A stretch of DNA of 64,000 nucleotides, taken from a bacterium. Lineage in GTDB: Bacteria > Hinthialibacterota > Hinthialibacteria > Hinthialibacterales > Hinthialibacteraceae. The notes beneath the pieces were generated by a model. The model did no database searches, was not told the origin of the DNA, and saw nothing but the letters and a program-made list of their open reading frames with translations. Of this stretch, positions 49,410 through 64,000 are shown piece by piece; the first letter of the stretch is position 1; each line of letters begins with the position of its first letter. The stretch is taken from positions 704,001 to 768,000 of the forward strand of contig CAXXMV010000008.1 in the NCBI GenBank assembly GCA_963662285.2, read 5' to 3'. The position numbers and the translations under genes were made by a program.

Positions 49410-51125
49410 CTACTTCACGATTTTCTTTCCTACTTTTTTCAGATAATCTGGAATATTCTTTACGGCATCCCGGTCATAGTCTTTTGTTTCTTCATCCAGG
49501 TCTTGCCACTCTTTCATATCTGGATGAGTTCGTTGTTTTATATCATTTGGCCCTTCAGTAAAATTTTCCAAGCGGTTAAAGGCAAGCCAGCGTTTGTGTT
49601 CCATTTCCGCAAGAATTTCTATATCTTCCTTAGAAAAATGATATTCTTCAACTTCGCTAGTTGCACATATGATTTGAAGACCAAGTGTGCGGAGTTTGAT
49701 TCCAATGTGCAGCGCTTGAAGTCTGTTGGATTCGCGATAATACATATTTAACTGATTCCAGGATTTGTGAGACTCCGTCATCCCAAAGTCATTTTTTTTT
49801 GCTGCGGATTCTAAATAATTTTTATGAATGACTTTTGCCAGATGGTCTAGTTCATCTTCAACAATACATTGTAATGTTGCCGTTTCATTCAATGCACCAA
49901 AATAGTTAAAAGCCGCATCCCGAAATTCAGAGTTCATATAACAGGATTGATCAACATCGGCAGGAATTCTTACAAAGATGGGAATTTTATATTTTTTTAG
50001 TTGTTGAGAAATATTATGAGGATATAAGAATGACTTGCGCTTTTCATTGAAACAAAATACAGCGGATATTATCGCATTTTTATTGTCCAGCCATTTCGTG
50101 AATTGTTTATCAAGGGTTTCCTTTTCAATGTCGGCATGAATAAATTCTATATCAGCCAGTGTATTGATTTGTGGATATTTTGCATATAATTCTTGCTTTC
50201 GGTTTTCCGAATCTAAATCGATAATAGATATTAATGTTTTTTGCTGATTTGCCATTTGATAGAGTTGAATGGCTTTAATAACTAAAATTTCCCCCAAACA
50301 TCCAAATCCTATAAGAATTAAATGGATAAAGTTATTGGAAGAAGGCATGATGGGGTTATAATCCAGCGGAGATTCATTTAATAGTTTCCTAGCCATGATC
50401 TCATACAAGTTGATGATTTGAAACTCTAATCCTGAATGCGGATTCAAGAATAAGTCTTTATCTCGTAAAACAATACACATTTTTGAGTCAATTATATGAA
50501 TATAGTTTCTAAGGATATTACATTTTTTTGATGCAACTGAATCTAACAAAGTCTGATGTACTTCATAAGCAAGTTCCATATTCTTAATATCTTCATCAAA
50601 AAAAGCAAATAAGTATGATGCTTTTTGAATACCTGCTTCAAGCAAAATAGAGTATTTTGTTGGTTCTGCTTGGATATGGTACAAATCCTGATTGTTGAAA
50701 TCATTTGAAACAATATCCAGACTAACATCAGCAAGCAGTACAACGTTTTTTTGCTTTTCTAACAAATCACAAATAAGATGTTTTGCCATTGGGGAATAGC
50801 CACAAACAATGTAGTGAGAATTAAAAAATCGAAGGATAAGTGATATATATTTTTTATAAAACAACGCGATGAATCCTAAAACCAATGTAAATGAGGATGT
50901 AACGACTCCCAGCCATCGAGCCAATTCTACTTGCCATGTTTGAGGAAGATCATCATATTCAAGAATAAATAATTGAATAGTGCTGTAAAGACGATCCCAA
51001 AGACTCCATGCAGGATGTTCAAAGAAATAACCCCAAAGCCCCAAAAATATTGTCCAACAGATTAGACAGGACAAAATTGAACCGCGATTGACTTCGATGT
51101 ATTTGATACCTTTCAAAATATTCAT
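49410..51125 (-). CDS. 2TM (channel-like)-RCK/TrkA_N x2-RyR domain protein
   Basis: TM1, pore-helix-like DRLYSTIQLF, TM2; Rossmann motifs HYIVCGYS and HLILIGFGCLG; RyR repeats LAKVIHKNY…WNQL…ESN and LAEMEHKRW…HPDMKEWQDLDEETKDYD. Confidence 0.85.
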   Translation of the reverse strand: MNILKGIKYIEVNRGSILSCLICWTIFLGLWGYFFEHPAWSLWDRLYSTIQLFILEYDDLPQTWQVELARWLGVVTSSFTLVLGFIALFYKKYISLILRFFNSHYIVCGYSPMAKHLICDLLEKQKNVVLLADVSLDIVSNDFNNQDLYHIQAEPTKYSILLEAGIQKASYLFAFFDEDIKNMELAYEVHQTLLDSVASKKCNILRNYIHIIDSKMCIVLRDKDLFLNPHSGLEFQIINLYEIMARKLLNESPLDYNPIMPSSNNFIHLILIGFGCLGEILVIKAIQLYQMANQQKTLISIIDLDSENRKQELYAKYPQINTLADIEFIHADIEKETLDKQFTKWLDNKNAIISAVFCFNEKRKSFLYPHNISQQLKKYKIPIFVRIPADVDQSCYMNSEFRDAAFNYFGALNETATLQCIVEDELDHLAKVIHKNYLESAAKKNDFGMTESHKSWNQLNMYYRESNRLQALHIGIKLRTLGLQIICATSEVEEYHFSKEDIEILAEMEHKRWLAFNRLENFTEGPNDIKQRTHPDMKEWQDLDEETKDYDRDAVKNIPDYLKKVGKKIVK

Positions 51126-52210
51126 AACTGTATCGACTTCGTTAGCTTTGGAATCATTTGATAATCTCTATCTTCAAAGGGTTTTTGAAATTCCAATAGC
51201 AATTCTTTCATTATGGGATGTATTGCGCATTGCTCCTTTACGTGGCAGTATTGGCAGGTAGTTTTTCCGGTAATTCCCAATTTCCCGACACCCGCCAACT
51301 CACCGGATCCCGAAGCTTTTATCACGGTTCCTTTCCCTTGAGGTGTTAACCAGTAAGCAAAATGACAATGCAGCGGCTCGACTTCAGCCCAATCGCCTGC
51401 TTGTAGGGTTTTAACATTCCAAGTTAATGAGCCCCGCTGGTTCATTGGTTTAGACCAAATTTGCATTTCACCCGATAGAATCCCATAGATTTCAACAGCA
51501 GGAAGTCCGTGAACATGGACATCCTGTTTGTCTTTGGGCGAGAAAAAACTCCATGTAAATCCCAATCCTTGTTTTTGATAGGGTAAATAAGGATCGGCTA
51601 CACGGAGATTAAAGGCTCGATTTCCTGCAGAAAGAATTTCATCTACGGTCTGGCTTTTAACAACTCGGACTCCGGTTTCTTGCAACGAAGCCCAATGACA
51701 TGCCAATGCATCCATGGATGGAATTGTTGATGTTGTATCGATAACCTCAGAAAAATGACTTTGAACATAATTAGCTATCGTTCGGACATTTGGCTCTTTT
51801 GTATCTGCAAGAACTTCATTCAACAATTTCCAGGAAATAATATCTTTTTGCGTATTCAAGTTAGCCCAACCAGATTCAGTTAATGAGATTGTCACTGGGT
51901 ATAAATACCATTTTTTGTTTAGCCCCTCGTAGCGTGGACTATTATGATCGTTTAACAAAAGTGGCAATTCATCTTCTAAAAAGTAACTTCCTGGCTTCAG
52001 TCCAAGATCTTCCTTTAAGGGACGTACGAGTGCTTTATAAAGCGATTCCCCCTGACGTAACTTTGTTGAGGGAAATGTTGGATGTCCTTGTTTTTCTATT
52101 AGCAGAAATTGTACAGGGTCATGAGAAGATAATTTTCTGCAAATCAAACAATATAATACATACGAAATGGACATATCTCTGACATTTTCTCGATTTGATT
52201 TTTCACACAT
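51122..52210 (-). CDS. Nudix-like plus cupin fusion protein
   Basis: Degenerate Nudix box GESLYKALVRPLKEDLGL; cupin motifs HVHGLPAVEIY and GDWAEVEPLHCH; CQYC…C near the C-terminus; ATGA overlap with the RyR gene. Confidence 0.7.
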   Translation of the reverse strand: MCEKSNRENVRDMSISYVLYCLICRKLSSHDPVQFLLIEKQGHPTFPSTKLRQGESLYKALVRPLKEDLGLKPGSYFLEDELPLLLNDHNSPRYEGLNKKWYLYPVTISLTESGWANLNTQKDIISWKLLNEVLADTKEPNVRTIANYVQSHFSEVIDTTSTIPSMDALACHWASLQETGVRVVKSQTVDEILSAGNRAFNLRVADPYLPYQKQGLGFTWSFFSPKDKQDVHVHGLPAVEIYGILSGEMQIWSKPMNQRGSLTWNVKTLQAGDWAEVEPLHCHFAYWLTPQGKGTVIKASGSGELAGVGKLGITGKTTCQYCHVKEQCAIHPIMKELLLEFQKPFEDRDYQMIPKLTKSIQL

Positions 52211-52234
52211 ATAGAATACCTATTTGGGCAAGTA

Positions 52235-52963
52235 TTTCCTGGTTCAACGTGAACTGGAGAATCACTCGTTCTGAGTTAGCACTTCTTTGTATAATAGTTT
52301 GAGTTTTTTAGGCAAGGGGAAACTATCAATCCAATGAATATCTTTTAATGGGAGGCGTAGAAGGAGTGGCCTTCCACACCCCACTCATCGTCTTGATGAG
52401 TTCCATCCGGCTATCCCTGGCGAGTTGCGCTCCCACAGAGCCCGCGTCCGTTTCACCGGATGCTATCATCTTCTTACATCACGTCAGCCGTGTCAAGAGT
52501 TTGCACGGCCTGCAGGTTGGCCTTTCTCCTTCCCGCGCTGCGTGAAGTTTACGATCCCATTCAGCGAAGATCGTGGGTCCGCGTCCGTCAGAGTTCCTTA
52601 AGACTTTTTTTACCTGAATGTGCTTCTCCATGAGTTCATCGAGTACTTCGTTCTTGCGTTTGAGTTTTTTTCCCAGCGCTGCGATTTTTCTCTCAGCGGT
52701 GGCAGACACGTCACTTGGGTTGGATTAGAAGGCGGCGGCTCCATTTTCAAAGAATTGCTTCTGTCAGCGGTAGAACATGGACGGTTGCAGCCCATACGTC
52801 TCACAGTTATCCGATACCTCCTGCCTGTCCACCAAATGGCGCTTCAAAATCCCGACTTTTCCCTGCGGGGTGCAATGCTTGAGTTTCTTTATGATCTCCT
52901 CCATTCGAATATGCTATGCTAACTCAAATGAAGTATTTCTCCATTTCCGTTTGAAACGGAGCA
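52235..52963 (-). mobile_element. IS3-family remnant (internally deleted)
   Basis: Decayed orfA (KVGILKRHLVD…FYR*QKQFFENGAAAF…KNEVLDELM) joined to an orfB tail (DRKLHAARE); imperfect terminal IRs sharing TTCAA…GAA.TGGAGAA…GAGTTAGCA. Confidence 0.7.
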
Positions 52964-53094
52964 CGGGAAGGAAGATTGACATGTCACTACTTTGTATGAT
53001 AAAATCAGGTGTGATATATTTCAGAATAATTCTGGATTAAATGGAAAATCTTGGACATATTGACTAATTTTTTATATCAATTATAGAGGAATCC

Positions 53095-56000
53095 ATGCTT
53101 CATTGCCCTAAATGCCATTCTTCAGATTTGACATTTCGTAAAAAGAAAAACGTCTATATTTGCGATAACTGCGATCATGAGTTTCATACGAAACAATCAT
53201 TTACCGCAAAGCGGATTTTTATCAGTTACGGACATGATGAACATGCCGCGTTGGCAGAAAAACTCAAAAACGATCTTGAAAAGCGTGGACAACTTGTTTG
53301 GTTCGATCGCAACCGGATTCCGCTGGGGCCGGATTGGGAGCTCAGCATCGAACAAGGTCTGGCTTGGTTGAGAGAGAACAGGGAAAACAGTCTCTTTATC
53401 ATCATCATGACACCCCACTCCGTGCGGCGACCGGATGCTTATTGTCTAAATGAAATAGCTTATGCGGTTTCTAAAAAATTCGACATTTTACCGATCATGC
53501 TGGTATATTGCGAACCGCCACTGTCGATCCTTCGCTATCAATATCTAGATATGCAGGATTGTCTTCCAATCGATATTCACGCAACACGCTATGAGAAGCA
53601 TTTTGAACGACTGTGCCAAGCGATCGAGCAGAACCATCGTGATTTTGAGGGTAATCAAGCATATTTCATGAAGTATCTTGATCCATTTTCGCTCTCATTC
53701 AACGCTCAAGTATTATCGAAATTGCCGAATTTTGTGGGACGAGGGTGGGTGATAGAAGCAATCGACCGCTGGCTCAGCGATCCTGAAGGTTCAAAAGTGT
53801 TTTGGATCAGCGGCAAGGCGGGCATCGGAAAATCATCGTTGTCGGTTTGGCTTGTTGAGAATCGCCCGGAAATCGCCGCCTTTCACATGTGCGAGTATCG
53901 CAACAACAATAAATCCGATCCCAAAATATGTCTGCTGTTTCTAGTTTATCAACTCACCCAAGAACTGCCTGATTACCAGGAGAAACTATTACAGCGCGAC
54001 ATTTCCAAAGACGTGCTGGAAAGCGACGCTTCGACGTTGTTTGATTCGCTAGTGGTTGAGCCGCTTTCGATGATCAAAGCGCCTGAACACAACTTCGTGA
54101 TTTTGATCGATGCGTTGGATGAAGCATCGCAAGGTCGTGTTAACGACCTGGCCGAATTCATCGCCAACGACTTCAAGAAGACGCCTTCCTGGCTACGCCT
54201 CATTGTCACCAGCCGACCAGAGACGAATATCCAGACGTATTTTCAATCCATAGATCCCTTTGATTTGGACAAGGCCAAAGATCAGAACGAAAACGACATC
54301 AAAACCTACTTACAAACTGCCTTGAAGCCGTTTTATCCCGATCAACCCATTTCTTCCGGCGTCTTGCAGACCATCGTCGAAAAAAGCGAGATGGTTTTCA
54401 CCTACGTTCAACAAATCATCCAAGAATTGCACGCAGGCCGACTGTCGTTGGATCGGTTAGATGAATTTCCCCGCGGATTGGGCGAATACTTTTTTACATG
54501 GTTTAAGCGACAATTTCCCGAAGCCGACAAACGCAAGCATGACAGCCAGGGGACCGTAGAGATATACAAAAAGCAATGTCTCCCCTTGTTGGAACTCCTG
54601 GCTGTCGCCCAAGAGCCATTAGCCTTGAATACCATTAAATCGATTTTGAACTGGGGCGATTATGGCGATGACATCATTAACTTTTTCGGTTCATTGCTCA
54701 TCAAGGATGAGACGGTTCATCCCTTTCACAGTTCGCTGATGGATTGGTTGGAAGATTCACAACGGTCGTATCCCTATACCATCCGCGCCATCGCCGGGCA
54801 TCGCCGTATGATGGAGTATGGTTGGGGAGTGTATGAAGACAATGTCCAAACCCTTCCTGTGTATTTTTTAAGGCGCCTTCCTCTTCATCTAATGGCTTTG
54901 GAGGAATGGGATCGTATCCGACAGTTTCTTTGTGAACCGCATATTCTCTCTCATTGGTCGAGGGATAAGCAGCAATATGAATTGCTCGCGCTGTGGCGGC
55001 AAATTGGCGAGGCCCTGGACATGGTCGCTCTATATATGGAGGCGACTGTACATCTGGGGGCATCGGATTTTTCACCTCGGCGAAAGCAGCAGATTTTACG
55101 TTCGATCGCTTCGTTTTTGGCTTTGAACGGTCACTATTCGTCGGCGGAAACTCTTCTTCGACAAGCGTTAGCGATTCTGATGGAATTAGAGGAAGCGTCT
55201 TTGATCGATGTAACCGAATGCAAGGAGGATTTAGCGCGAGTTTATACACATCAATACAAGCAGGCCCCGGCGCTTCGTTTATTTAAGGAAGTGGAAAAAG
55301 CATATGAAAGCGAATTGGGCTTGGATCACTCTGATATGGCAGATTTATTCACCCATATGTCGGATTTGTATTATCAGCAATGCCGATTCACTGAGGCAGC
55401 GCATTATTGCCGTCAGGCTCTTAATATCCATAAGAAACATTTTCACTTCAATCACTCTCTTCTCGCTGATTCGCAGCATGCCTTGGCGAATATCAATCGC
55501 TCTCAAGGGTGTGGTGAAGAAGCGGAATCGCTCTATTTGAGATGTCTGAACATTCACCACGAAAACTTGGGAGATGATCATATCAAGGTCGCCGACGTGT
55601 TGCACGATTTGGCGATTCTCTACTTTCAACAAAATAACATTACGCAAGCGGAATACCATTTCAAACGCGCATTCGAGATTCGCAACCGTTTTTTGGGGGC
55701 GTCTCACCCTCAAATCGCGGATACATTGAGCGCGTTGGCGGACGTCATGGTCTCCAAAGGTGACCTTACGGGCGCCGAACGGTATTATCAAGACGCCTTA
55801 CAGATGCTGGAGACGTCATTCGGCAAAGAAAGCGTAAAGCGGGCGGACGTTATGGAGCGATTCGCCGAGCTCTATATACGTCAGGATCGCTTTGAACCGG
55901 CGATGCGGCTGCTCGATGAAACTCTCTCCATTCGAAATAAGTATTTGGGTCCCATTCAGTTCGACACCATGCGCGCACGGCGTAAGAGAACACAATTACA

Positions 56001-57720
56001 GCTACGTTATGAAGGACTGGATAAAAGAAGTGCGTTTGCTAATCGAAATGAGTTCCTTGATATCGAAAGCAGACTGGCTGAAACGTACGGTCAGGCAATC
56101 TATGATGCATTTGTAGAGAAAAAAAGTCCGGAACCGGGCGATTTACTGCCGCCCCAAACCGCCGTACAGTTACAAAATGATCTTGCCCTACTTAGGGATG
56201 TGATAGAAATACGCTTGTATGCGGATGTTCTTTCCTACACCATGGTTCAATACCGCATTTGTGAGCTCAGTGGAGATTGGGGCGATGTGGGAAAAGACCG
56301 CGCCGATTTTAATTTGATGCAAGTACTGCTTTCTCTTCCGCCCGATGAAGAGATCCAATTTCACCACTATTCACTATATGCAGAGGCGCGAGAGGAATTG
56401 ATGGGAACGCTGCATCTTGATCGCTTGAATAAAGAATCGATCGATGCGTTGAAAAAAAAGATGGAATGGTTCGAGTTAAAGATATTAAACAAAAAATTCA
56501 ATCTGAAATCGAAGGAGATTAATCGAATTCTCGCATGGTTGAAATCCAATCATCGATTGACAAACTCATCGGAATGCTTGTTATGGGGAAGAGCAGATTG
56601 CTTCGGTATGCAAAACAACACAATATCCATCTACCACCATGAGGAGATGCGTTCACCTTTGCTGGCCAATTATTGCGTATCATTTTCGAAAGATACGGAA
56701 ATCATCTTACGTGAAGAAGGGATCAACTATGTGATGTATATCAAATGGGCGAGTGTATTTAATGGTTCGGCGTTTGCGCCGACGGCTAAGGAACAAATCT
56801 CGGATCGTCTAAAACAATGCGCGCTGGAGGCCTGCCGAATCGGAACGCGACGGGATTTTGAACTGCAGAAAGATTTTTTCATCAGCGCCATGATGGAAAA
56901 TATTTTTTATTATGAATTAACCGACAAATCACTCAATGAGGTGGTTGGAAGTATATCCGTTGGAATGCAATCTGGATTAAGGAACTTCCACAATAAAAAT
57001 TTCCTGGCGCACGTGAATTGTCTTACATGCGAATGGCATCCGCTTGTCGATGGCAAAGTCAGCCCCATCGGCAATATTTTAGACACAGCTATCGAGAAGA
57101 GCGATTACAACCGCGCCTTGCAACTTCTATATATCTATCTCAGCGACGGCTGGTTTCTAGACACCGACATCTCTTTTATGTATCCCTATACTCATATTCT
57201 GTACCTTCTTATTCTTCCTTATCTGAAAGAGCCTTTGTATGTCGACTTTGAAATGATGCAAAAGGATTTGCCGACACTGTTTGATTTTATGATAAGTGAA
57301 TATAAGCGAATGCTCGAACATTTGCATAATTTCCTTCTTAAACGAAGTTATATTGATGAGGGAAAAGAATGCCATTTTGAGAATATCAAAGATAAGATTC
57401 TCTGCTTCCAAACACTTTATGAAACGTTGGGTACACATTTCGACACGGAATGGGTGAAATCAATTAATTTTTGGAGAAATTTTTTCAGCAGAGTTCTTCG
57501 AGAAGATCCCTTGTTTCATCAGGCATTGACGATTCAGATCCAAGAATATCAAATGGATTTCTATGCCAAATTGTTGAGTCGTTTTCATGGCCAAAAGCAA
57601 TACGATCCCAGCCCGGCTGGTGTTGAGAATTATATCATCGAACAAATGACGGATCGAGGGTACTCCATTCGAGATAAGCAGATGATCTATCTACCTTTAT
57701 CCGAACTTGGACTCGATTGA
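53095..57720 (+). CDS. Zn-ribbon-TIR-NACHT/STAND-TPR protein with unassigned C-terminal domain
   Basis: CPKC…CDNC; IFISYGH…WFDR…YCLNEI (TIR Glu present); FVGRGW, GKAGIGKS, ILIDALDE, IVTSRP; kinesin-light-chain-type TPRs. Confidence 0.9.
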   Translation: MLHCPKCHSSDLTFRKKKNVYICDNCDHEFHTKQSFTAKRIFISYGHDEHAALAEKLKNDLEKRGQLVWFDRNRIPLGPDWELSIEQGLAWLRENRENSLFIIIMTPHSVRRPDAYCLNEIAYAVSKKFDILPIMLVYCEPPLSILRYQYLDMQDCLPIDIHATRYEKHFERLCQAIEQNHRDFEGNQAYFMKYLDPFSLSFNAQVLSKLPNFVGRGWVIEAIDRWLSDPEGSKVFWISGKAGIGKSSLSVWLVENRPEIAAFHMCEYRNNNKSDPKICLLFLVYQLTQELPDYQEKLLQRDISKDVLESDASTLFDSLVVEPLSMIKAPEHNFVILIDALDEASQGRVNDLAEFIANDFKKTPSWLRLIVTSRPETNIQTYFQSIDPFDLDKAKDQNENDIKTYLQTALKPFYPDQPISSGVLQTIVEKSEMVFTYVQQIIQELHAGRLSLDRLDEFPRGLGEYFFTWFKRQFPEADKRKHDSQGTVEIYKKQCLPLLELLAVAQEPLALNTIKSILNWGDYGDDIINFFGSLLIKDETVHPFHSSLMDWLEDSQRSYPYTIRAIAGHRRMMEYGWGVYEDNVQTLPVYFLRRLPLHLMALEEWDRIRQFLCEPHILSHWSRDKQQYELLALWRQIGEALDMVALYMEATVHLGASDFSPRRKQQILRSIASFLALNGHYSSAETLLRQALAILMELEEASLIDVTECKEDLARVYTHQYKQAPALRLFKEVEKAYESELGLDHSDMADLFTHMSDLYYQQCRFTEAAHYCRQALNIHKKHFHFNHSLLADSQHALANINRSQGCGEEAESLYLRCLNIHHENLGDDHIKVADVLHDLAILYFQQNNITQAEYHFKRAFEIRNRFLGASHPQIADTLSALADVMVSKGDLTGAERYYQDALQMLETSFGKESVKRADVMERFAELYIRQDRFEPAMRLLDETLSIRNKYLGPIQFDTMRARRKRTQLQLRYEGLDKRSAFANRNEFLDIESRLAETYGQAIYDAFVEKKSPEPGDLLPPQTAVQLQNDLALLRDVIEIRLYADVLSYTMVQYRICELSGDWGDVGKDRADFNLMQVLLSLPPDEEIQFHHYSLYAEAREELMGTLHLDRLNKESIDALKKKMEWFELKILNKKFNLKSKEINRILAWLKSNHRLTNSSECLLWGRADCFGMQNNTISIYHHEEMRSPLLANYCVSFSKDTEIILREEGINYVMYIKWASVFNGSAFAPTAKEQISDRLKQCALEACRIGTRRDFELQKDFFISAMMENIFYYELTDKSLNEVVGSISVGMQSGLRNFHNKNFLAHVNCLTCEWHPLVDGKVSPIGNILDTAIEKSDYNRALQLLYIYLSDGWFLDTDISFMYPYTHILYLLILPYLKEPLYVDFEMMQKDLPTLFDFMISEYKRMLEHLHNFLLKRSYIDEGKECHFENIKDKILCFQTLYETLGTHFDTEWVKSINFWRNFFSRVLREDPLFHQALTIQIQEYQMDFYAKLLSRFHGQKQYDPSPAGVENYIIEQMTDRGYSIRDKQMIYLPLSELGLD

Positions 57721-57744
57721 AACAGGACGAAACTACTGGAACTG

Positions 57745-60700
57745 TTGAGCAGTACAGACGACGCGTTCTTGACAAACAGAGCATTAATCGAGGTTTTTAT
57801 GCTAATCGATTTTCTGACTTATCAACGAGAGACCCAAAAGCAACCGGCTCCGTCTAAGCCACTCGATTGGACTTGCGGGGAATTGCTTTGTGATGTCAGC
57901 TATCTTCAATACACGGGGCCGTCGGAATGGGAGTGCACTGGTTTATTCGGCTCTTCACATACATGCAAAGATATACACCGGAATCGCCGTTTTCTCTGCT
58001 TGGTTCCACGGGAAGAAATCTATCGCAAAGGTTGGGTGCGTAAGCGATTTGCGTTTGAGTACAAACGGCTTCTCACCGCCTCTCCCTCCCCCTTTCTGAT
58101 GATTCCCGTAGGATGGATCGAAAGGGTTGATTATGTCATGTGCATCTTGGAATGGAATGACAGGGTTCCGCTGCAAACCTTGTTAGAATCATCACAATCG
58201 GCGCCATCCTCTTCTCCACTTCCCTTTGCCGATCCCCAAGTGCGAGCGCGCGATGCACTCGAATTGTTTTTCCAAGTCGCCACGGGAATGAAACAGTTGC
58301 ATGACAAAACAGGGTTGATTCATCACAATCTTCATCCCGGAACCCTCTTTTGGAGTCAAGAGCGTCAGGCGTTTCAAATCAGCGGTTTTCTACTTTCGCA
58401 TAGTCTGTATTGGACTCGGGAGGATGAACCTGAGTTTGAAACGACATTTCCGGACAACAATGTATCTTCAGAAGATAGTATCTGCGCATTTCAATTTCCC
58501 GAATCCGTCCGTCCCTATCTTCCTCCAGATGTTCTCGATAATCCCCTGCATGCGGAACCCTGCGACGATATATATTCTCTCGGCATGATCGTATATCAAA
58601 TTCTGCATAATTTTAACGATGAAGTCGTCAAGCGGTTTCCAACGGATGGTTTTGAAACGCCCGAGTGTGGAAGTGATGGGCTTCTTACCTTACTGCGCCG
58701 ATGCCTGGCGACGCAGAGGGATGATCGATGCATTTCGTGGGACGCTCTTCTCGACGATGTACGTAATATGTTGTCTGAAAATAAGAGTCGATCCCTGCAA
58801 AAACCCCAACTCATTCTTTCATGCGACGACTGTGTGAATCTATCCTGGGCGCACATCGACATGAGTAAATACAGTCGCGCCGGGGAATGGGCCAACCAAG
58901 CCCTCGACATCGAGTCGAATAATTCTTTCGCTCAAATAGCCAAGATGATCACTCTTGGGAAAATCGGTCGCTTGGATGAAGCCTTTGAAATTGGATCATC
59001 CTTACTTCGTAGAGAGCCGGAAAACGCCGAAGCGCATAATTATATGGGTTATTTGTATTACCAAAAAGGAGATTTCAAAACCAGTCTTGAACATTTTGAA
59101 TCCAGTTTGCGTTACGATTCCAACCTAGCCTGCAACTATAACAACCTCACTGTACTCTATCTTGTTCACGAACGCCTGAAAGAAGCGCGGGACTGCTTGA
59201 TGCGGGGCTTGGAACGCTTTCCCTTCGATCCCGATCTATTGGTTTCATGGGTTAGTGTATCCGAATCGCTAGGAGACCTCCCGAGCGCATTGGCCCATCT
59301 CGAAGAAAAACTCGCGGACGATTGGGATGGCTCCATTCACAATGCGTATGGTATGGTGCTGGAAAAAAAAGGCCGCCTCGATGACGGAATAATCCGGCTA
59401 GAGGCCTTTCTTTCGACCAGGCCGAGCGCCCATCTCGCTTGGAACCGGTTGGGAATTCTTTCAGAAAACGCCGGACATTTGGAAAAAAGTCTGGAAAGTT
59501 TTCAAAAGGCCATCCGTCTCAAACCACATGACGAAAACTATGTGGGCAATTGCCTACGGATTTTAAACTCATTGGGTTGTTTGTCTGAGGGAATTCAACT
59601 TGGAGAACAATGGTTGTCCTGTTATTATCCCGCAATGTCTGTTAGCAGCCTATTGGGAGTGCTATTGACTAATGCGGATGAGATAGAACGCGCGGTAGAG
59701 CCTCTTCAGAACGCTCAACGCATTGCCCCTTGCGATGAGACATTGGCGGGCAATCTGGTTCACAGTCTGCGCATTGCCGACCAGGTAAATCAAGCCATTG
59801 AATTCGGCGCCGAATGGTCAGTAACTCATAAAGGTGGATCGTATTTTTGGAATCAATTGGGGAACGCCTATTTTGGCTTGGAGCGTTTTGCCGAAGCAAT
59901 TCCCTGTTATCAGAAAGCTCTGGAATTCGAACCGGATGATGCAGAAATCGCATCCAATTTATTAAATGCCTATTTTAAAATAAACGATTTTTCCGCTTGT
60001 ATGCAATTCGCCGAAGCATGGCTTGCAGACCATCAGGGCAACGAGAATTTTCATACTTACTTAAGCATCTCCTTCATCAACACGAATCAGATGGAAAAAG
60101 CCATCTCTACCTTAAAAACCGCTATCAGCAAGCAGCCTGAATTAGCAAATTCACTGAAAGAAGTGATTGCCAAATTAACTCAGAGTGGGCAGGAACAACG
60201 GGCGATTGAATTCGGCGAACTCTGGCTCCTACACAATCCTCCGACGCTGGATGTTTTGAATCAAATCGGAATCGTCCATTACGAAAACAAACGCTTTGAA
60301 GAGGCGACCGCCTGTTTTCGAAACGCACTCGAACTGGAACCAAGTAATAAAACTGTCGCATTGAATATAATGAATTCCTACGATAACTTGAATCAGTATC
60401 AGCGGTGCATCGAATTTGGAGAAAATTGGCTCCAACACAATCCTCCGACGCTGGATGTTTTGAATCTTATCGGAATCGTCCATTACAAAAACAAACGCTT
60501 TGAAGAAGCGACCGCCTGTTTCCAAAACGCGCTCGAACTGGAACCAAGTAATAAAACTGTCGCATTGAATATAATGAATTCCTACGATAACTTGAATCAG
60601 TATCAGCGGTGCATCGAATTTGGAGAAAATTGGCTCCAACACAATCCTCCGACGCTGGATGTTTTGAATCTTATCGGAATCGTCCATTACAAAAACAAAC

Positions 60701-61842
60701 GCTTTGAAGAAGCGACCGCCTGTTTCCAAAACGCGCTCGAACTGGAACCAAGTAATAAAACTGTCGCATTGAATATAATGAATTCCTACGATAACTTGAA
60801 TCAGTATCAGCGGTGCATCGAATTTGGAGAAGATTGGCTTAATCGGCACTCGCCAGATGATACAATATTCGGACATCTTGTCGATGCGTACACTCATTTA
60901 GGAAAGTATGATAAAGCAGAACAAGCGTTAGTAAAAGCACCGAAAGAATATCAATATTTGAGATGTATACTAAACGCTTACTATCAATCCAAACAATTTG
61001 ACAAAGCCATCGATTGTGCAGAACAATGGAAAGATCAATACAATCTTGAGCCGGAGTTATGGAATTCCTTGGGACAAATCCATTATGATAAAAAACAATA
61101 TTCGGAAGCCTTAGAATGCTATGAAGAAGCATCGCGATTGTCCCCTGAAAATCTAGATTACCTTAATAACTCTGCTTTGGCCTTGTCCTCATTAAAAAAA
61201 CACGATGAAGCGATTGCCCGAATGGGCTATGTACTTGAGCAACAGCCTAGTACTTTACTTTATGCACAAAATTACTTTACATGCCTTAAAGACGCCAACC
61301 ACAAAGAAAAAGCTGTTGAATTTGCGAAAGGGTGGATGGAAGCAAATACTGTGGATGAAATTTTATTGAATTCTGTAGGACTAACGTTAGATGATTTAAA
61401 GAAAGATAAAGATGCAATTGAATGCTACCAGAAGGCTCACGAACTGAATCCTCAAAATGCCGGGTATTTAAATAATATGGGAATGAGTTTCAAAGCACTC
61501 GGCCAATTCGATCAAGCCATTACTTTAACGAAGCAAGCCATAGAACTGGAGCCGAAAAATATTGTTATTATTGTGAATCATCTTATCTGTTTGAAAAGTG
61601 CAGACCGTCTGGATGAAGCGATCCAAATCGGCAATGCTTGGATTCAAGAACATGGCGAAAAACCAATAGTTTTAAATCAATTGGCGTTGATTCACGAACA
61701 AAAATTTGATTTTGAAAATGCGCTGGTCTGTTATGATTCCACACAAGAGAAAGAGAAATACCTTGCCGCATTAATAGATTACGGCCGGTATGAAGCCCTG
61801 AATCAAGCCTTGGAATGGTATGACTGGATGGAGACGGCGTGA
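57745..61842 (+). CDS. Ser/Thr kinase-fold (probable pseudokinase) plus extensive TPR array
   Basis: QVATGMKQLH, IHHNLHPGTL, QISGF, YLPPD, DDIYSLG, RCL…R scaffold; many TPRs. Start may be 57799. Confidence 0.85.
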   Translation: MSSTDDAFLTNRALIEVFMLIDFLTYQRETQKQPAPSKPLDWTCGELLCDVSYLQYTGPSEWECTGLFGSSHTCKDIHRNRRFLCLVPREEIYRKGWVRKRFAFEYKRLLTASPSPFLMIPVGWIERVDYVMCILEWNDRVPLQTLLESSQSAPSSSPLPFADPQVRARDALELFFQVATGMKQLHDKTGLIHHNLHPGTLFWSQERQAFQISGFLLSHSLYWTREDEPEFETTFPDNNVSSEDSICAFQFPESVRPYLPPDVLDNPLHAEPCDDIYSLGMIVYQILHNFNDEVVKRFPTDGFETPECGSDGLLTLLRRCLATQRDDRCISWDALLDDVRNMLSENKSRSLQKPQLILSCDDCVNLSWAHIDMSKYSRAGEWANQALDIESNNSFAQIAKMITLGKIGRLDEAFEIGSSLLRREPENAEAHNYMGYLYYQKGDFKTSLEHFESSLRYDSNLACNYNNLTVLYLVHERLKEARDCLMRGLERFPFDPDLLVSWVSVSESLGDLPSALAHLEEKLADDWDGSIHNAYGMVLEKKGRLDDGIIRLEAFLSTRPSAHLAWNRLGILSENAGHLEKSLESFQKAIRLKPHDENYVGNCLRILNSLGCLSEGIQLGEQWLSCYYPAMSVSSLLGVLLTNADEIERAVEPLQNAQRIAPCDETLAGNLVHSLRIADQVNQAIEFGAEWSVTHKGGSYFWNQLGNAYFGLERFAEAIPCYQKALEFEPDDAEIASNLLNAYFKINDFSACMQFAEAWLADHQGNENFHTYLSISFINTNQMEKAISTLKTAISKQPELANSLKEVIAKLTQSGQEQRAIEFGELWLLHNPPTLDVLNQIGIVHYENKRFEEATACFRNALELEPSNKTVALNIMNSYDNLNQYQRCIEFGENWLQHNPPTLDVLNLIGIVHYKNKRFEEATACFQNALELEPSNKTVALNIMNSYDNLNQYQRCIEFGENWLQHNPPTLDVLNLIGIVHYKNKRFEEATACFQNALELEPSNKTVALNIMNSYDNLNQYQRCIEFGEDWLNRHSPDDTIFGHLVDAYTHLGKYDKAEQALVKAPKEYQYLRCILNAYYQSKQFDKAIDCAEQWKDQYNLEPELWNSLGQIHYDKKQYSEALECYEEASRLSPENLDYLNNSALALSSLKKHDEAIARMGYVLEQQPSTLLYAQNYFTCLKDANHKEKAVEFAKGWMEANTVDEILLNSVGLTLDDLKKDKDAIECYQKAHELNPQNAGYLNNMGMSFKALGQFDQAITLTKQAIELEPKNIVIIVNHLICLKSADRLDEAIQIGNAWIQEHGEKPIVLNQLALIHEQKFDFENALVCYDSTQEKEKYLAALIDYGRYEALNQALEWYDWMETA
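60232..60839 (+). repeat. 204-bp intragenic tandem repeat x3 (68 aa, two TPRs per unit)
   Basis: CACAATCCTCCGACGCTGGATGTTTTGAATC recurs at 60232, 60436 and 60640; units are near-identical. Confidence 0.92.
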
Positions 61843-61908
61843 TGAAAATCAAATTTGTTGGAGAGGAAGGTTTAGAATCGAAATTCTTTTTAAGGATCTT
61901 CAGAAAAC

Positions 61909-64000
61909 ATGAACCTACACTGGTATGACGAACAAATTCAACTTTACAAAAAACTTACTTCCCTCTATGAAAAAATGGCGGCGGGATTAAAACGGCGTCT
62001 GCAAATCGCCATGTCCGAGATGGGGATGGACGCTATCGTTCAGGCGCGTGCAAAAACCATCTCCAGCTATGCAGAAAAGATCGTCCGCAAACAGAGCAAA
62101 TATGCCGATCCTATCCGTCTGATCACCGACCTCTGCGGACTGCGCATCATCGTCGAACGATTGGATGAAGTTCGCCGATTGTGCGATTTCATTGAAACCG
62201 AGTTTGAGATTGATGAAGGAAACAGTGAAGATTGCCTCGAACGTCTGAAGATCAATGAGTTCGGCTACTTATCCAATCATTACATCGTGATGTTGACTTC
62301 CCCCGAAAAAGCTGAAGCGTTCGGCATTACGACGAGCGATCTCGATATCATAAAAACAGTCAAGGGGCTGGATTTTCCGATCAAGGCCGAGATCCAAGTA
62401 CGGACGCTACTGCAACATGCATGGGCGGTTTTCATACATAAGCATCTCTATAAAAGGAAATGGAACCTACCGCGGGCGTGGCTCCGCGAAACATCCCGTA
62501 TCTCGGCTATGTTGGAGGATGCGGACGATTCGTTTTCCCGACTGGTCGAGGAAATTGACGTCTATAAGACACAGTACGGCGCCTACATGACGCCAGATCA
62601 GATGAACAGTGAAATCGAGATGCTGCAATTGATTCAACGTTACGATCCCGGTAATGAATCTCTTGCCCGTGAAATTGCTCGAATCGCGAAGGAAAGCGGA
62701 CGCTGGTCATTGGTGGTGGAAACATTATTGCCGTTTCGCGAATCCGCCGATCCCGACTCTCTTCTCGATCTCGGCAACGCCATTTTGCACATGAAAGATC
62801 CGCTCCAAGTCGATGAAGGCCACCGCCTGATTGAGCGCGCCATTGAATTGTCTGCTAAAAACGCACCAGCCTATATCACCTTAGCCCAATTGTGCAGAGA
62901 AAGCGAACAGACAAAACGTTTGCGCTATTACGAAATGGCTTTTCAGGCCGATCCAAACGAACCCATGGCATTTTGTGGTTTTCTGCTAAACAAAATCATA
63001 GCAGAGCGAAATCGAGATTTTCTAGCATTGCTTCGCCCTCTTATAGAAAATGCCGTCAAACGTTGTAATGATCGAATACGCGCCGGTGTCGATGCTTCCT
63101 CTTCGTATTGTCATATCGGAATATTGCAGATGGCGTTGGGTCGAATGGAATCGAGCGCATCCGCCTTTGCCAAAGCGGCGACATTAAAACCGGTTCCTCG
63201 CGTATTTTATGAATATCGAGATTCGGTGCGTTTATTAATAAATCAGGTTAACAATCAATGGCCCGAACTACTCATACTCGACCAACTATTCGATCTCTTC
63301 AACAAAGCAGAGGCGCTTCAAAGCGGTTCAATCTCTGACATTTCAAACGACTTGCAGACGACGAGCCTGATACGGATTCCCGTTGTCATTGTGGCAGGCA
63401 GCTGCAATGAAGATTCGTCTCACCTCATGGAGGCGCATCGAAAATTGATGACAGAATCGTTTCAAGGATTTCAAGGAACAATTGTATCAGGCGGAACCCG
63501 ATCAGGCGTCAGTGGTCTGGTGGGAGATATGTCGTTGGATATGGGCAACGCCGTGAAACTGGGATATATACCCAAAGACATCGAATCAAATCAACTGCAT
63601 CCTGCTTTCCTCATCCGGAGAACGAAGGGATCAACCTTTTCGACGCTGGAACCAATCCAGTATTGGATAGATTTGCTACAATCTGGGATTTGTCCATTGC
63701 AAGTAAAATTGATCGGCTTCGGTGGTGGGGTGCTTTCAGCGTTTGAATATCGCTTGGCGCTGGCAATGGGCGCCTGGGTGGGCATATTGCCTGATAGCAG
63801 GCGTGAAGCCGCCCGCCTGCTGGACGACGATGATTGGAATGGCTCACCGAACCTTCTTCGCATTCCGTTGGATGCTGGGATTTTACGTTCCTTCATTCAC
63901 CCTGCGCCGTCGGCGGCGTTTGCGTCGGATGATCGCGAGCGAATGGCACGGGGCATTCATGGCGAATATCGAAAAAAACATGTGAAGCGATTGCTGCAAT
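61909..64000 (+). CDS. RelA/SpoT synthetase-TPR-SLOG-(probable RyR) protein, 3' truncated by window; absent from ORF track
   Basis: Manual translation has no stop from ATG 61909 to the end. QARAKTISSYAEK, TDLCGLRII, FGYLSNHY, EIQVRTLLQHAWA; TPR helices; VVIVAG…IVSGGTRSGVSGLVG…LIGFGGG…E; ends ERMARGIHGEY. Confidence 0.88.
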   Translation, partial: MNLHWYDEQIQLYKKLTSLYEKMAAGLKRRLQIAMSEMGMDAIVQARAKTISSYAEKIVRKQSKYADPIRLITDLCGLRIIVERLDEVRRLCDFIETEFEIDEGNSEDCLERLKINEFGYLSNHYIVMLTSPEKAEAFGITTSDLDIIKTVKGLDFPIKAEIQVRTLLQHAWAVFIHKHLYKRKWNLPRAWLRETSRISAMLEDADDSFSRLVEEIDVYKTQYGAYMTPDQMNSEIEMLQLIQRYDPGNESLAREIARIAKESGRWSLVVETLLPFRESADPDSLLDLGNAILHMKDPLQVDEGHRLIERAIELSAKNAPAYITLAQLCRESEQTKRLRYYEMAFQADPNEPMAFCGFLLNKIIAERNRDFLALLRPLIENAVKRCNDRIRAGVDASSSYCHIGILQMALGRMESSASAFAKAATLKPVPRVFYEYRDSVRLLINQVNNQWPELLILDQLFDLFNKAEALQSGSISDISNDLQTTSLIRIPVVIVAGSCNEDSSHLMEAHRKLMTESFQGFQGTIVSGGTRSGVSGLVGDMSLDMGNAVKLGYIPKDIESNQLHPAFLIRRTKGSTFSTLEPIQYWIDLLQSGICPLQVKLIGFGGGVLSAFEYRLALAMGAWVGILPDSRREAARLLDDDDWNGSPNLLRIPLDAGILRSFIHPAPSAAFASDDRERMARGIHGEYRKKHVKRLLQ

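Follow-up and report, generated by a model that had tools for sequence, protein, structure and literature searches.

What kind of system sets TIR-type sensors beside a RelA/SpoT-like enzyme and a channel-like membrane protein, both of which carry a C-terminal RyR domain? We addressed this question for a gene island in a window of 64,000 nt (the whole stretch of DNA analysed). The mobile gene island is real, and it appears to be a bacterial relative, as yet undescribed, of both Thoeris immunity and animal ADP-ribose/ryanodine-receptor signalling. IS elements and an integrase lie in its flanks, and RHS, patatin and transposases mark the window as a general conflict island. Its distribution is patchy: an orthologue was found in only 1 of 40 relatives, and of 35 genomes from the phylum 2 carry RCK-RyR.

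Domain composition of the locus

ORF calls recovered the two divergent arms where an earlier note on this DNA had placed them (Table 1), and all the domains it had listed were found apart from the cupin. In the sensor P0003, Pfam detected TIR_2 (3e-15), NPHP3_N/NACHT (2.6e-25), TPR and, weakly, a Zn-ribbon (1.6e-3), and assigned no family to the C-terminal ~550 aa. The TIR Glu120 is conserved and a Walker A motif lies at residue 240. A sigma-70-like site ~90 nt upstream of this gene (52976-53005, plus strand) matched 11 of 12 positions; as two such sites were found against 1.9 expected, they give no evidence of function. The TPR array of P0004 includes three near-identical 204-bp units. When its kinase-like domain was aligned to GCN2 and PERK, the catalytic HRD-Asp, loop Asn and DFG-Asp proved to be substituted (HHNLHPGT, SGF), and the protein is therefore a pseudokinase, as had been called. 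It is not a conserved member of the system, being present in none of the 80 RelA loci surveyed below (one weak match covered TPR only), and may be a local add-on.

Table 1. Features of the island and its surroundings, in window positions
Feature	Position	Strand	Composition	Evidence
DUF4062 STAND	42853..49053	-	2066 aa; DUF4062 (11-108), NACHT/NPHP3_N, TPR, HEAT, C-terminal FGE-sulfatase-like	Pfam
P0001	49410..51125	-	571 aa; 2TM pore-like, tandem RCK, RyR	Pfam, AF2, Foldseek
RyR (R12-like) domain of P0001	49413..49637	-	residues 497-571	alignment to animal RyR R12
P0002	51122..52210	-	362 aa; Nudix, cupin-like beta domain (candidate), C-terminal Cys cluster	Pfam, Foldseek, motifs
Divergent intergenic region	52211..53094	.	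between P0002 and P0003	
P0003	53095..57720	+	1541-aa STAND; Zn-ribbon, TIR 41-173, NACHT, TPR	Pfam
P0004	57745..61842	+	kinase-like 66-288, long TPR array	Pfam, alignment to GCN2/PERK
P0006	61909..64000	+	825 aa; RelA/SpoT 47-184, TPR, SLOG about 485-680, RyR 748-823	Pfam
P0007	window-equivalent 64362-64793, outside window		143 aa; canonical Nudix; overlaps P0006 end by 26 nt	

The P0006 ORF leaves the window and ends at window-equivalent position 64386. Over the full protein Pfam gave RelA_SpoT (1.5e-15), RyR (3.2e-14), weak TPR matches and a SLOG region, the last with Gly-rich motifs at 528 and 603; LSDAT_prok was matched by 14 of 21 aligned family members and not by P0006 itself. The RelA/SpoT synthetase motifs are intact, and the nearest solved relatives of this domain are the housekeeping enzymes RelQ/RelP (about 1e-17). 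The RyR of the system matches R12 of animal RyR1-3 at 1e-17.

On the minus arm, the P0001 and P0002 genes overlap by 4 nt. P0001 matched TrkA_N (1.6e-7) and RyR (1.6e-6) in Pfam. In its AF2 model (pLDDT 85.9), TM1 and TM2 flank a short helix and are followed by a pair of Rossmann lobes and then by the RyR end, which is helical. The closest fold was the GsuK channel (Foldseek, 1e-9; the match spans about 500 columns, and NAD- and ADP-bound entries are among those matched). P0001 resembles RCK-gated K+ channels of the GsuK/MthK/TrkA type in that a 2TM pore-like domain is followed by two RCK lobes, but it carries an added RyR domain and lacks the TVGYG filter, the pore-loop position reading QLFILEYDD (family consensus QLFxLESGS).

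P0002 had been described as a Nudix-cupin protein, and only the first half of that name held. The Pfam NUDIX match in P0002 itself is below cut-off (1.4e-3) and its Nudix box is degenerate (RE to RP); NUDIX is supported in 17 of 20 family members, and Foldseek returned RppH, NrtR and Ap4A hydrolases, from 5e-7. No cupin was found by Pfam in any of the 20 family members or by Foldseek on P0002 among the matches listed, all of which are Nudix-fold. The family has an invariant HxH...E...H motif and Cys cluster, and ESM Atlas features lead to Cupin_2 clusters (0.93-0.94); from this motif and the language model, the cupin identity of the region is a lead only.

The cluster also extends beyond the bounds first drawn, and a DUF4062 STAND gene, the small Nudix gene and a second locus had been overlooked. 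Downstream of the RCK-RyR gene, and separated from it by 356 nt, lies the STAND gene, which falls outside the earlier start. Its product matched DUF4062 at 2.9e-12 (47.1 bits, cut-off 24.7), FGE-sulfatase at 2.4e-45 and HEAT_2 at 1e-30, and has a conserved Glu at residue 77 and a Walker A motif at 288. The second locus, in the same genome, combines Nudix-cupin, Nudix, RelA-SLOG-RyR and DUF4062-NACHT-WD40. Among the DUF4062 domains, Glu82 is retained as is the Glu77 just mentioned. The two loci account for every RyR ORF (three), RelA-SLOG ORF (two), Nudix-cupin (two) and DUF4062 ORF (five) in the 7.3-Mb genome.

Gene association across genomes

To survey neighbours we used stop-to-stop ORFs and purpose-built HMMs at 80 RelA-TPR-SLOG-RyR loci, drawn from many phyla of both bacteria and archaea. 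Nudix genes were present in 50 loci, TIR in 32, DUF4062 in 22 (either of the two in 46), NACHT in 35, 2TM-RCK-RyR in 19 and AAA-RyR in 13. The association of RelA-SLOG-RyR with signalling genes recurs across phyla. TIR and DUF4062 genes lay mostly on the same strand and a few genes away (same strand for 31 of 41 TIR genes); 34 loci had neither in contig sequence, with many contigs ending early. All ten sampled TIR matches were TIR_2 by Pfam, one of them below cut-off, and the sensor arms of sampled TIR proteins were diverse (WD40, HEAT, TPR, CHASE2, PEGA, FGE, CHAT).

The tightest partner was the Nudix gene: in 31 of 35 cases it is the immediate neighbour of RelA-SLOG-RyR (offset +-1), 33 of 35 share its strand, and the median distance is 3 bp; two of 21 aligned family members are RelA-SLOG-RyR-Nudix fusions. 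This conserved partner is the small canonical Nudix, whereas Nudix-cupin stands beside RelA-SLOG-RyR in only 2 of the 80 loci, so the off-switch role once given to the latter is better assigned to the former. Nudix-cupin loci (n=76, most of them short) contained TIR in 24, DUF4062 in 12, RelA-SLOG-RyR in 11 and any RyR protein in 23, and NADAR and ThsB-like TIR proteins are also among the neighbours.

Such a pairing could mean that the RelA-SLOG-RyR protein is a toxin, an alarmone or tRNA pyrophosphokinase doing its own sensing through TPR, SLOG and RyR, and that the Nudix enzyme degrades its product in a toxin-antitoxin-like pair, the STAND, TIR, DUF4062 and channel genes being merely co-gathered. 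The spacing, the overlap here and the fusions would fit, as would the 34 loci without TIR or DUF4062 and the general conflict genes of the window; toxic small alarmone synthetases encoded beside their antitoxins are an established class, and PADLOC's PDC-S33 and PDC-S07 are separate single-gene candidates. We nevertheless find this unlikely, since 46 of the loci have TIR or DUF4062, usually in the same orientation, and the DUF4062 ORFs of this genome are all near RelA. Moreover, SLOG and RyR put two small-molecule-binding domains on the enzyme and imply a nucleotide input, and the same type of RyR domain appears on two further effector-like families at the same loci. P0006 does share with toxSAS/CapRel a RelA/SpoT synthetase with intact motifs and, in tight linkage and frequently overlapping, a neutraliser-like gene, but it is a multidomain protein with TPR, SLOG and RyR, and its partner is a Nudix hydrolase, neither a protein antitoxin nor a small alarmone hydrolase. 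For the RelA gene PADLOC matched PDC-S33 only, with no CapRel-named model among the matches. Across the cluster it returned PDC-S33 (RelA part), PDC-S07 (small Nudix) and kinase and TIR domain matches; these are single-domain candidates only, in line with the earlier view of a conflict system unlike any named one.

At E<=1e-30 the channel family counts 5889 representatives. When RCK-RyR loci were picked independently of RelA (n=29), TIR or DUF4062 was found in only 7, and 19 had none of the system partners nearby, indicating that this family is much wider than the system. Its size and the mostly missing TIR neighbours (22 of 29), the likeness of the RelA domain to RelQ/RelP and sigma-54 activators in 8 of the 80 RelA loci could be taken to indicate physiology rather than immunity: environmental microbes with large genomes would sense their NAD/ADP-ribose state and tune alarmone levels and ion flux accordingly, in part under sigma-54 activators. 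We hold this to be very improbable given the rarity among relatives and within the phylum, the mobile-element flanks, and partners of the NLR-like STAND type, whose sensor arms are hypervariable; furthermore, no sigma-54 activator is among the annotated ORFs of the locus, and sigma-54-type sites do not exceed chance in the window.

RyR domains and the candidate messenger

Phage RyR domains use His/Trp/Asp residues to bind TIR-made 2'/3'cADPR, with nM affinity, or to cleave it (2026 preprints), and phage RyR proteins are homodimers via helices alpha1 and alpha4. Mapped through the animal RyR R12 alignment, with residue roles from the phage RyR papers, His510, Trp513, His534 and Asp551 of P0001 align with the phage ligand residues. 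Among RelA, RCK and AAA family domains, the His is conserved in 86/86, 20/20 and 18/18, the Trp in 79/86, 15/20 and 16/18, and the Asp in 78/86, 12/20 and 16/18, respectively. RyR similarity between RelA and RCK partners was 0.324 at the same locus and 0.322 at other loci, and between RelA and AAA partners 0.293 and 0.280, with ranks evenly spread. Because the phage domains act on cADPR isomers, by binding or cleavage, the residues are kept and there is no same-locus likeness, the RyR domains are probably, on sequence grounds, receptors of a common NAD-derived ligand rather than a protein bridge, and the proposal that they link synthetase to channel is disfavoured. It follows that the TIR product is a likelier candidate than the RelA product for the messenger acting on the channel.

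The circuit first put forward (STAND-TIR sensor, RelA messenger, RCK receiver, RyR-RyR contact and Nudix-cupin off-switch) seems improbable to us as a whole. RCK gating rings bind nucleotides and NAD/ADP GsuK entries are the best fold matches, the phage homodimers make a RyR-RyR contact physically plausible, and an RCK-RyR gene accompanies RelA-SLOG-RyR in 19 of 80 loci. However, same-locus RyR pairs are no closer than others, RCK-RyR is missing from 61 of 80 RelA loci and RelA-SLOG-RyR from 27 of 29 RCK-RyR loci, and Nudix-cupin is as rare beside RelA as noted above.

The phage anti-Thoeris proteins RyDEP (a glycosidase) and RyR Tad (a sponge) share PF02026 and the His-x-x-Trp ... Asp ligand residues with the domains described here. 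They are small and directed against the host signal, which they destroy or sequester, whereas here RyR is a C-terminal module of large host proteins (RelA, channel, AAA ATPase) and is preceded by a half-repeat. The phage phosphate-binding His is Ser in 54 of 86 RelA-family domains, P0006 included, which speaks against a Thoeris-like reading. The literature searched holds no description of host RyR effectors.

Proposed mechanism and relation to known systems

We give about an even chance to a Thoeris-like island that signals through NAD-derived nucleotides, and from the observed domains, conserved residues and recurrent gene association we infer its biochemical steps as follows. The TIR-NACHT-TPR and DUF4062-NACHT-TPR-HEAT-FGE STANDs would sense an invader or stress via their repeat arms and oligomerise, and their TIR or TIR-like heads would convert NAD+ to ADP-ribose or a cyclic ADP-ribose isomer. 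This signal may be received by the RyR and/or SLOG domain of RelA/SpoT-TPR-SLOG-RyR and by the RyR of 2TM-RCK-RCK-RyR. The RelA/SpoT enzyme would then make an alarmone-type pyrophosphorylated nucleotide, or pyrophosphorylate tRNA, and the GsuK-like, non-K-selective pore would open, the two jointly arresting or killing the cell. The small Nudix, whose gene would be translated together with that of the RelA enzyme, may hydrolyse signal or product, setting a threshold and protecting the cell, and Nudix-cupin could be a lineage-restricted accessory enzyme or sensor in the same ADP-ribose chemistry.

In Thoeris type I a SLOG domain is the receiver of 3'cADPR. The likeness to Thoeris lies in a conserved-Glu TIR, a SLOG-bearing effector (compare ThsA SIR2-SLOG), diverse TIR proteins beside one effector family and several alternative effectors. 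Here, in contrast, most TIR domains form part of a large STAND or repeat protein, or DUF4062 takes their place; the effector is a RelA/SpoT pyrophosphokinase instead of SIR2, Macro-TM or caspase-like, and an additional RyR domain and a Nudix as fixed partner are present. ThsB/ThcB4 models matched far below cut-off (22.7 bits against 220; E 1.3e-3), and the accessible portion of the survey of Thoeris types I-XI mentions no RelA/SpoT, alarmone or RyR effectors. Against the Thoeris-like reading, the TIR of P0003 is housed in a large STAND, and in Avs-type proteins, a class excluded from the TIR survey, TIR is an NAD-depleting effector. The 34 RelA loci without TIR or DUF4062, the many RCK-RyR loci without partners and the kinship of the RelA domain to RelQ/RelP also count against it.

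DUF4062 is a TIR-like NADase that hydrolyses NAD+ to ADPR (2026 preprint), so far known only as an NAD+ hydrolase or depleter and not as a signal maker. Like the DUF4062 (NIR) NADase proteins (Swarozyc, Evangelion; TEP1/NWD1), the proteins here have a conserved-Glu head beside NACHT and WD40 or TPR arms, and the DUF4062 head of P0009 matches TEP1 at 4e-12. Bacterial systems of the Swarozyc/Evangelion type act alone by NAD+ depletion, whereas here the neighbours are RyR- and SLOG-bearing effectors; RyR, RelA and Nudix go unmentioned in the portions of the DUF4062 preprint texts that were available to search.

TRPM2 binds ADPR at SLOG-like and Nudix-like domains. The suggestion that the TRPM2/ryanodine-receptor domain set is spread over bacterial genes holds for the domain vocabulary, in that an LSDAT-type SLOG (the Pfam family is named 'SLOG in TRPM, prokaryote'), Nudix, the RyR R12 repeat and an ion channel were all found. 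Here, unlike in the animal proteins, these domains reside on separate genes, and the channel is GsuK-like, not TRP or RyR.

Gene layout and putative sensor proteins

The gene set of the earlier note, two divergent arms carrying a STAND-TIR protein, a pseudokinase, a RelA-SLOG-RyR protein, an RCK-RyR channel and a Nudix-cupin, is real, and it reaches further on both sides, to a 2066-aa DUF4062 protein (ORF 42853-49053) and to P0007, a small canonical Nudix.

Features of the first locus, its surroundings and the second locus (window coordinates unless a locus or contig is named; the window is G000:C8:704001-768000)
Feature	Location	Strand	Remarks
RHS-repeat protein, 2215 aa	25114-31761	minus	with beta-helix/NosD domains
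ISL3-family transposase	32496-33788	plus	near first RelA locus
Patatin-like phospholipase	34577-35647		comes after the TIR-like/WD40 stretch
WD40 ORF, 585 aa	35685-37442	minus	
TIR/ThsB_TIR fragment	37461-37793	minus	
DUF4062-NACHT-TPR-HEAT-FGE-sulfatase protein, 2066 aa	42853-49053	minus	
P0001, 571 aa	49410-51125	minus	2TM-RCK-RCK-RyR, channel-like
P0002, 362 aa	51122-52210	minus	Nudix-cupin; 4-nt overlap with P0001
Divergent spacer between arms			884 nt
P0003	53095-57720	plus	Zn-ribbon, TIR, NACHT, TPR, 550 aa without assigned family
P0003, final ~550 residues	56065-57720	plus	
P0004	57745-61842	plus	kinase-like + TPR
P0004, repeated 204-bp units within the TPR array	60223-60839	plus	
P0006, 825 aa	61909 onward, past window end	plus	RelA_SpoT, TPR, SLOG, RyR
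P0007, 143 aa	beyond window		canonical Nudix; overlaps last 26 nt of P0006 gene
ISL3-family transposase	L005:8677-9795		near second RelA locus
P0008, RelA-SLOG-RyR of second locus	L005:11543-14593; G000:C8:1147542-1150592		
Three further DUF4062 ORF fragments and a 1715-aa NACHT ORF	G000:C8:1155652-1164747		past the second locus

The STAND layout of bacterial NLR-like and Avs-like proteins, with an N-terminal effector domain, a P-loop NACHT and C-terminal repeats, was found in P0003, in ORF 42853-49053 (DUF4062, NACHT, TPR/HEAT) and in P0009, a DUF4062-NACHT-WD40 protein of a second, paralogous locus in the same genome. In P0003 the order is TIR, NPHP3_N/NACHT, TPR: Pfam places TIR_2 at 3e-15, at least 80% of the 74 TIR domains of these loci that were aligned have Glu at the position of Glu120, and the Walker A motif at 240 is intact. 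Its final ~550 residues matched no Pfam family and may be the true sensor part. The DUF4062 domains score 47.1 bits in ORF 42853-49053 (cut-off 24.7) and 39.4 bits in P0009. A preprint reports DUF4062 to be a TIR-like NAD+ hydrolase, and the residue it names as catalytic is the Glu kept in both proteins (Glu77 and Glu82, respectively). P0004 is indeed a pseudokinase, as its kinase-like domain is devoid of the catalytic HRD Asp, the catalytic-loop Asn and the DFG Asp; its TPR array contains a 204-bp unit three times in tandem (97% matches), as if pairs of TPRs (68 aa) had recently multiplied in frame.

Upstream within the window lie DUF350, TPR and 3-keto-disaccharide-hydrolase-like ORFs. The TIR/ThsB_TIR fragment stops at its end, TIR-like sequence seems to run on in another frame into the WD40 ORF, and a frameshift within a TIR-WD40 gene, or an error of sequencing, probably accounts for the stretch 35685-37793 (minus). 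Beyond P0007 come IS21 IstB and a phage-type integrase (L004:4506-8173), then unrelated genes. A sigma-54 promoter pattern had 17 matches in the window versus 27 expected, none of them in the divergent region, and a sigma-70 scan returned sites at chance level.

The RelA-SLOG-RyR, Nudix and channel-like proteins

The RelA_SpoT domain of P0006 (Pfam, 1.5e-15) has RelQ/RelP-type enzymes as its nearest solved relatives, and all 21 sequences compared share the motif residues R47, K49, D74, G119, Y120, H124, E161, Q163 and R165. Fourteen of 21 family members have an LSDAT_prok SLOG, as does the paralogue P0008; the corresponding region of P0006 aligns throughout with its relatives, yet has no Pfam SLOG match of its own. 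Burroughs et al. 2015 (NAR) reportedly defined the SLOG and LSDAT families. The C-terminal RyR domain scores 53.4 bits (PF02026 cut-off 27.4) and matches animal RyR R12 at 1e-17. P0007 matches NUDIX at 3.4e-21 and carries, from residue 48, a complete Nudix box (consensus GX5EX7REUXEEXGU).

An AF2 model of P0001 (pLDDT 85.9) has two TM helices with a short helix between them, then two Rossmann lobes and, at the end, a helical RyR domain, and its best Foldseek match is the GsuK channel (1e-9, ~500 columns), followed by TrkA, MthK, Slo1 and the RyR3 R12 domain; by both, a 2TM pore domain and RCK gating domains are present. Compared with RCK-gated K+ channels P0001 is GsuK-like but the K+ filter is missing: no TVGYG-type sequence occurs in the pore loop, which reads QLFILEYDD in P0001 and QLFxLESGS in an alignment of 19 family members. 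A complex prediction with four copies of residues 1-105 scored 0.36 (mark 0.42), which speaks neither for nor against a tetramer. The RyR domain of P0001 scores 28.7 bits against the 27.4 of PF02026. A word-based homologue search with P0001 gave nothing useful and was replaced by a profile search, which put the RCK-RyR family at 5889 representatives at 1e-30.

P0002 fared differently in its two halves. The model and Foldseek give a confident Nudix fold. The Nudix box is degenerate (family consensus GEDLYSALVRPMEEDLGL, with RE changed to RP and the first Gly out of register); P0002 may bind rather than hydrolyse. The proposed cupin had no Pfam match, the listed Foldseek rows were all Nudix-fold proteins, and a PDB profile search found only weak Nudix and designed-protein matches. 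Beyond the Nudix part lie an HxH..E..H motif (H232, H234, E240 and H283, invariant in 20 sequences) and a Cys cluster, in a half modelled as beta-rich at a pLDDT of only 50–76. ESM Atlas features point, as a lead, to Cupin_2 clusters (0.93–0.94), and from motif and lead this half can be called cupin-like.

Distribution and gene neighbourhoods

The RelA-SLOG-RyR family gave 141 word-search matches at 30–43% identity and at least 500 confirmed loci among species genomes. Its distribution is patchy: one of 40 relatives has an orthologue, and among the 35 genomes of the host phylum in the collection RelA-SLOG-RyR and RCK-RyR each occur in only one other (G001). The best 80 loci come from bacteria (Planctomycetota, Chloroflexota, Actinomycetota, Desulfobacterota-type, Bacteroidota, Verrucomicrobiota, Acidobacteriota, Gemmatimonadota, KSB1 and others) and from archaea (Methanoregulaceae, Methanobacterium and Bathyarchaeia). 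Six archaeal MAG loci (L021, L022, L024, L025, L082, L091) carry full-length RelA-TPR-SLOG-RyR proteins, mostly with an adjoining Nudix, and a Heimdallarchaeota-labelled relative without RyR (P0121) is among the protein matches.

Neighbours of RelA-SLOG-RyR genes in the best 80 of at least 500 loci (all stop-to-stop frames, purpose-built HMMs, E<=1e-5)
Neighbour	Loci of 80
Nudix (separate or fused)	50
TIR or DUF4062	46
NACHT	35
TIR	32
DUF4062	22
RCK-RyR	19
AAA-RyR	13
Nudix-cupin	2

Of the partners that had been expected to accompany the RelA gene, RCK-RyR does so in part of the loci and Nudix-cupin hardly at all. In 31 of 35 cases the Nudix gene is the immediate neighbour of the RelA gene (offset ±1), and the median distance is 3 bp; for RCK-RyR the median is 189 bp. 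One could therefore read RelA and Nudix as an autonomous pair, similar to a toxin-antitoxin module, within a defence island; the tight spacing is of that kind. The TIR or DUF4062 genes in 46 of 80 loci speak against it, as do SLOG and RyR, two small-molecule-binding domains of P0006 that imply a nucleotide signal, and we consider this explanation unlikely.

The sensors vary far more than this core. TIR proteins of RelA loci were nearly all singletons when clustered, with WD40, HEAT/TPR, PEGA, FGE, CHASE2 or CHAT-Clp_N arms, and Pfam found TIR_2 in 10 of 10 sampled (one below cut-off). A core that stays constant while its sensors are hypervariable typifies conflict systems. A physiological sensor of NAD state seems very improbable. 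A filtered ORF set of the 80 loci, in which the longest of overlapping ORFs was kept, so that real genes in GC-rich loci are lost and counts are lower bounds, held sigma-54 activators in at least 8, SLATT_1 in at least 5 and ClpB-like ATPases in at least 5; it contained no counterpart of the P0004 pseudokinase.

A further family, AAA-RyR (~860–1000 aa), has an N-terminal part without a family, an AAA ATPase and a C-terminal RyR. It comprises L062:4541-7126 and 17 further ORFs in L018-L173, has no PADLOC match and also occurs in 6 of 76 Nudix-cupin loci.

The Nudix-cupin family gave 334 matches at 52–62% identity. In a sample of 76 metagenome loci, only 23 of them at least 10 kb long, 24 had a TIR gene, 12 a DUF4062, 11 a RelA-SLOG-RyR and 23 an RyR protein of some kind, and ThsB-like TIR proteins were also among the neighbours. 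Judged by these neighbours, Nudix-cupin would be an accessory within the same NAD/ADPR-centred network. A NADAR-domain protein recurs in 5 of its loci (L130:3319-3975 and four others), and a ~235-aa protein without a Pfam family adjoins Nudix-cupin in 8 (L143:940-1668 and seven others).

As a control, loci were picked through RCK-RyR alone: 30 of 969 genomes from three phyla had it, and 27 genomes contributed the 29 regions retained. This sample leaves out the seed genomes G041 and G042, three G414 fragment matches and G689:C878 (contig <3 kb), and two of its regions, L234 and L235, lie on contigs already represented by L070 and L069. TIR or DUF4062 was present in 7 of the 29 regions, AAA-RyR in 4 and a RelA protein in 2, with none of these in 19. 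The TIR/DUF4062 rate is several-fold above the ~3% expected by a rough estimate from the density of such genes in the genome that carries the window; most RCK-RyR genes are without a visible tie to TIR genes.

The second locus and the whole genome

The second locus, ~380 kb away, holds on one strand a Nudix-cupin that shares 54% identity with P0002, a canonical Nudix, a RelA-TPR-SLOG-RyR whose RelA domain is partly duplicated, and DUF4062-NACHT-WD40, the head of which resembles TEP1. Its upstream side has a TIR-TPR gene at 5 kb, its downstream side more DUF4062/NACHT ORFs. Given those DUF4062 fragments and the long NACHT ORF, this locus, too, is a larger island of NADase-STAND genes. In P0008 the first half of the RelA/SpoT domain is partially duplicated in tandem; Pfam shows two RelA_SpoT stretches, and the repeat is near-identical in sequence.

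A six-frame scan of the 7.3-Mb genome with purpose-built family HMMs found 3 RyR ORFs, 2 RelA-SLOG ORFs and 2 Nudix-cupins, all in the two loci. Each of the 5 DUF4062 ORFs lies within ~15 kb of a RelA gene, as do 2 of the 6 TIR ORFs (within 15 kb), and a third TIR ORF is 24 kb off.

RyR domains as candidate receptors

In two 2026 preprints, the phage PF02026 protein RyDEP cleaves 2'/3'cADPR (residues His75, Trp78, His100, Asp117), a phage RyR Tad binds 3'cADPR, 2'cADPR and cADPR tightly (His129/Trp132, His154, Asp171), and these ligand residues are common to animal R12 domains. Mapped by alignment to RyR R12 and by spacing, the His occurs in all RyR domains of the RelA (86/86), RCK (20/20) and AAA (18/18) families, the Trp in 79/86, 15/20 and 16/18, and the Asp in 78/86, 12/20 and 16/18, respectively. 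The second His is Ser in 54 of 86 RelA-family domains; it is His in P0001 and P0008.

The earlier note had the RyR domains link synthetase and channel; in such a circuit an alarmone would act on the RCK domains and RyR-RyR contact would hold the two proteins together. RyR domains of two partners resemble each other no more within a locus than between loci, a pattern that does not fit adaptor domains co-evolving for contact and fits a common ligand. We regard the contact circuit as quite unlikely. The kind of circuit, TIR-type nucleotide signalling, stands, and its wiring needs redrawing. We give about an even chance to a scheme in which STAND-TIR/DUF4062 proteins would make an NAD-derived signal, RyR/SLOG domains would receive it, these receptors would switch on the RelA/SpoT enzyme and the channel, and Nudix would reset the system.

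A bolder version, which we put forward tentatively and at less than even confidence, is that bacteria and archaea themselves use RyR domains as native receptors for (c)ADPR signals that TIR/NADase proteins make. These receptors would gate a GsuK-like channel directly and switch on alarmone synthesis, so that NAD-derived immune signalling joins the chemistry of the stringent response. The sponges and glycosidases with RyR domains that were described from phages in 2026 would be captured host copies, and the system as a whole the prokaryotic forerunner of two animal pathways, from cADPR to the ryanodine receptor and from ADPR to TRPM2. If true, RyR would be a new receptor in TIR-based immunity, with the RelA/SpoT pyrophosphokinase and the RCK channel as two new effector classes, phage RyR-domain sponges and glycosidases would have a reason, and NAD-derived signals and alarmones, so far studied apart, would become linked. 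It would also provide a small, tractable bacterial channel for asking whether an R12-type RyR turns (c)ADPR binding into gating, a question that the same preprints leave open for animal ryanodine receptors. Both families are large, with at least 500 loci for RelA-SLOG-RyR and thousands of RCK-RyR representatives.

Comparison with known systems

A full-text literature search found no host RyR-domain effectors or RelA/SpoT-SLOG-RyR protein (an earlier computational mention is possible), and nothing joining RyR with RelA/SpoT, SLOG, alarmone synthetases or host Thoeris effectors; RyR and Thoeris came together only in two phage preprints.

The cluster would work most like Thoeris but does not match it by curated models or by architecture. 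It shares a TIR with Glu at the catalytic position (P0003) and an effector family with SLOG, a candidate signal-binding domain; in Thoeris, SLOG is reported to receive 3'cADPR. It differs in that the ThcB4 score of 22.7 bits is far under the cut-off of 220 and PADLOC ThsB1 reaches only E 1.3e-3, and in that there is no compact operon of TIR plus effector, the TIR belonging to a 1541-aa STAND inside a seven-gene cluster. With toxSAS/CapRel it shares a RelA/SpoT synthetase domain with catalytic motifs present in P0006, but this is an 825-aa protein with TPR, SLOG and RyR, and its partner is a Nudix, with no protein antitoxin or fused antitoxin domain; PADLOC gave only PDC-S33 for P0006. The earlier view that the cluster is neither Thoeris nor CapRel is thereby upheld. 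So is the likeness to TRPM2 and ryanodine receptors: LSDAT SLOG, Nudix, RyR R12 and channel, the same domain vocabulary, of which TRPM2 has its share, are all present.
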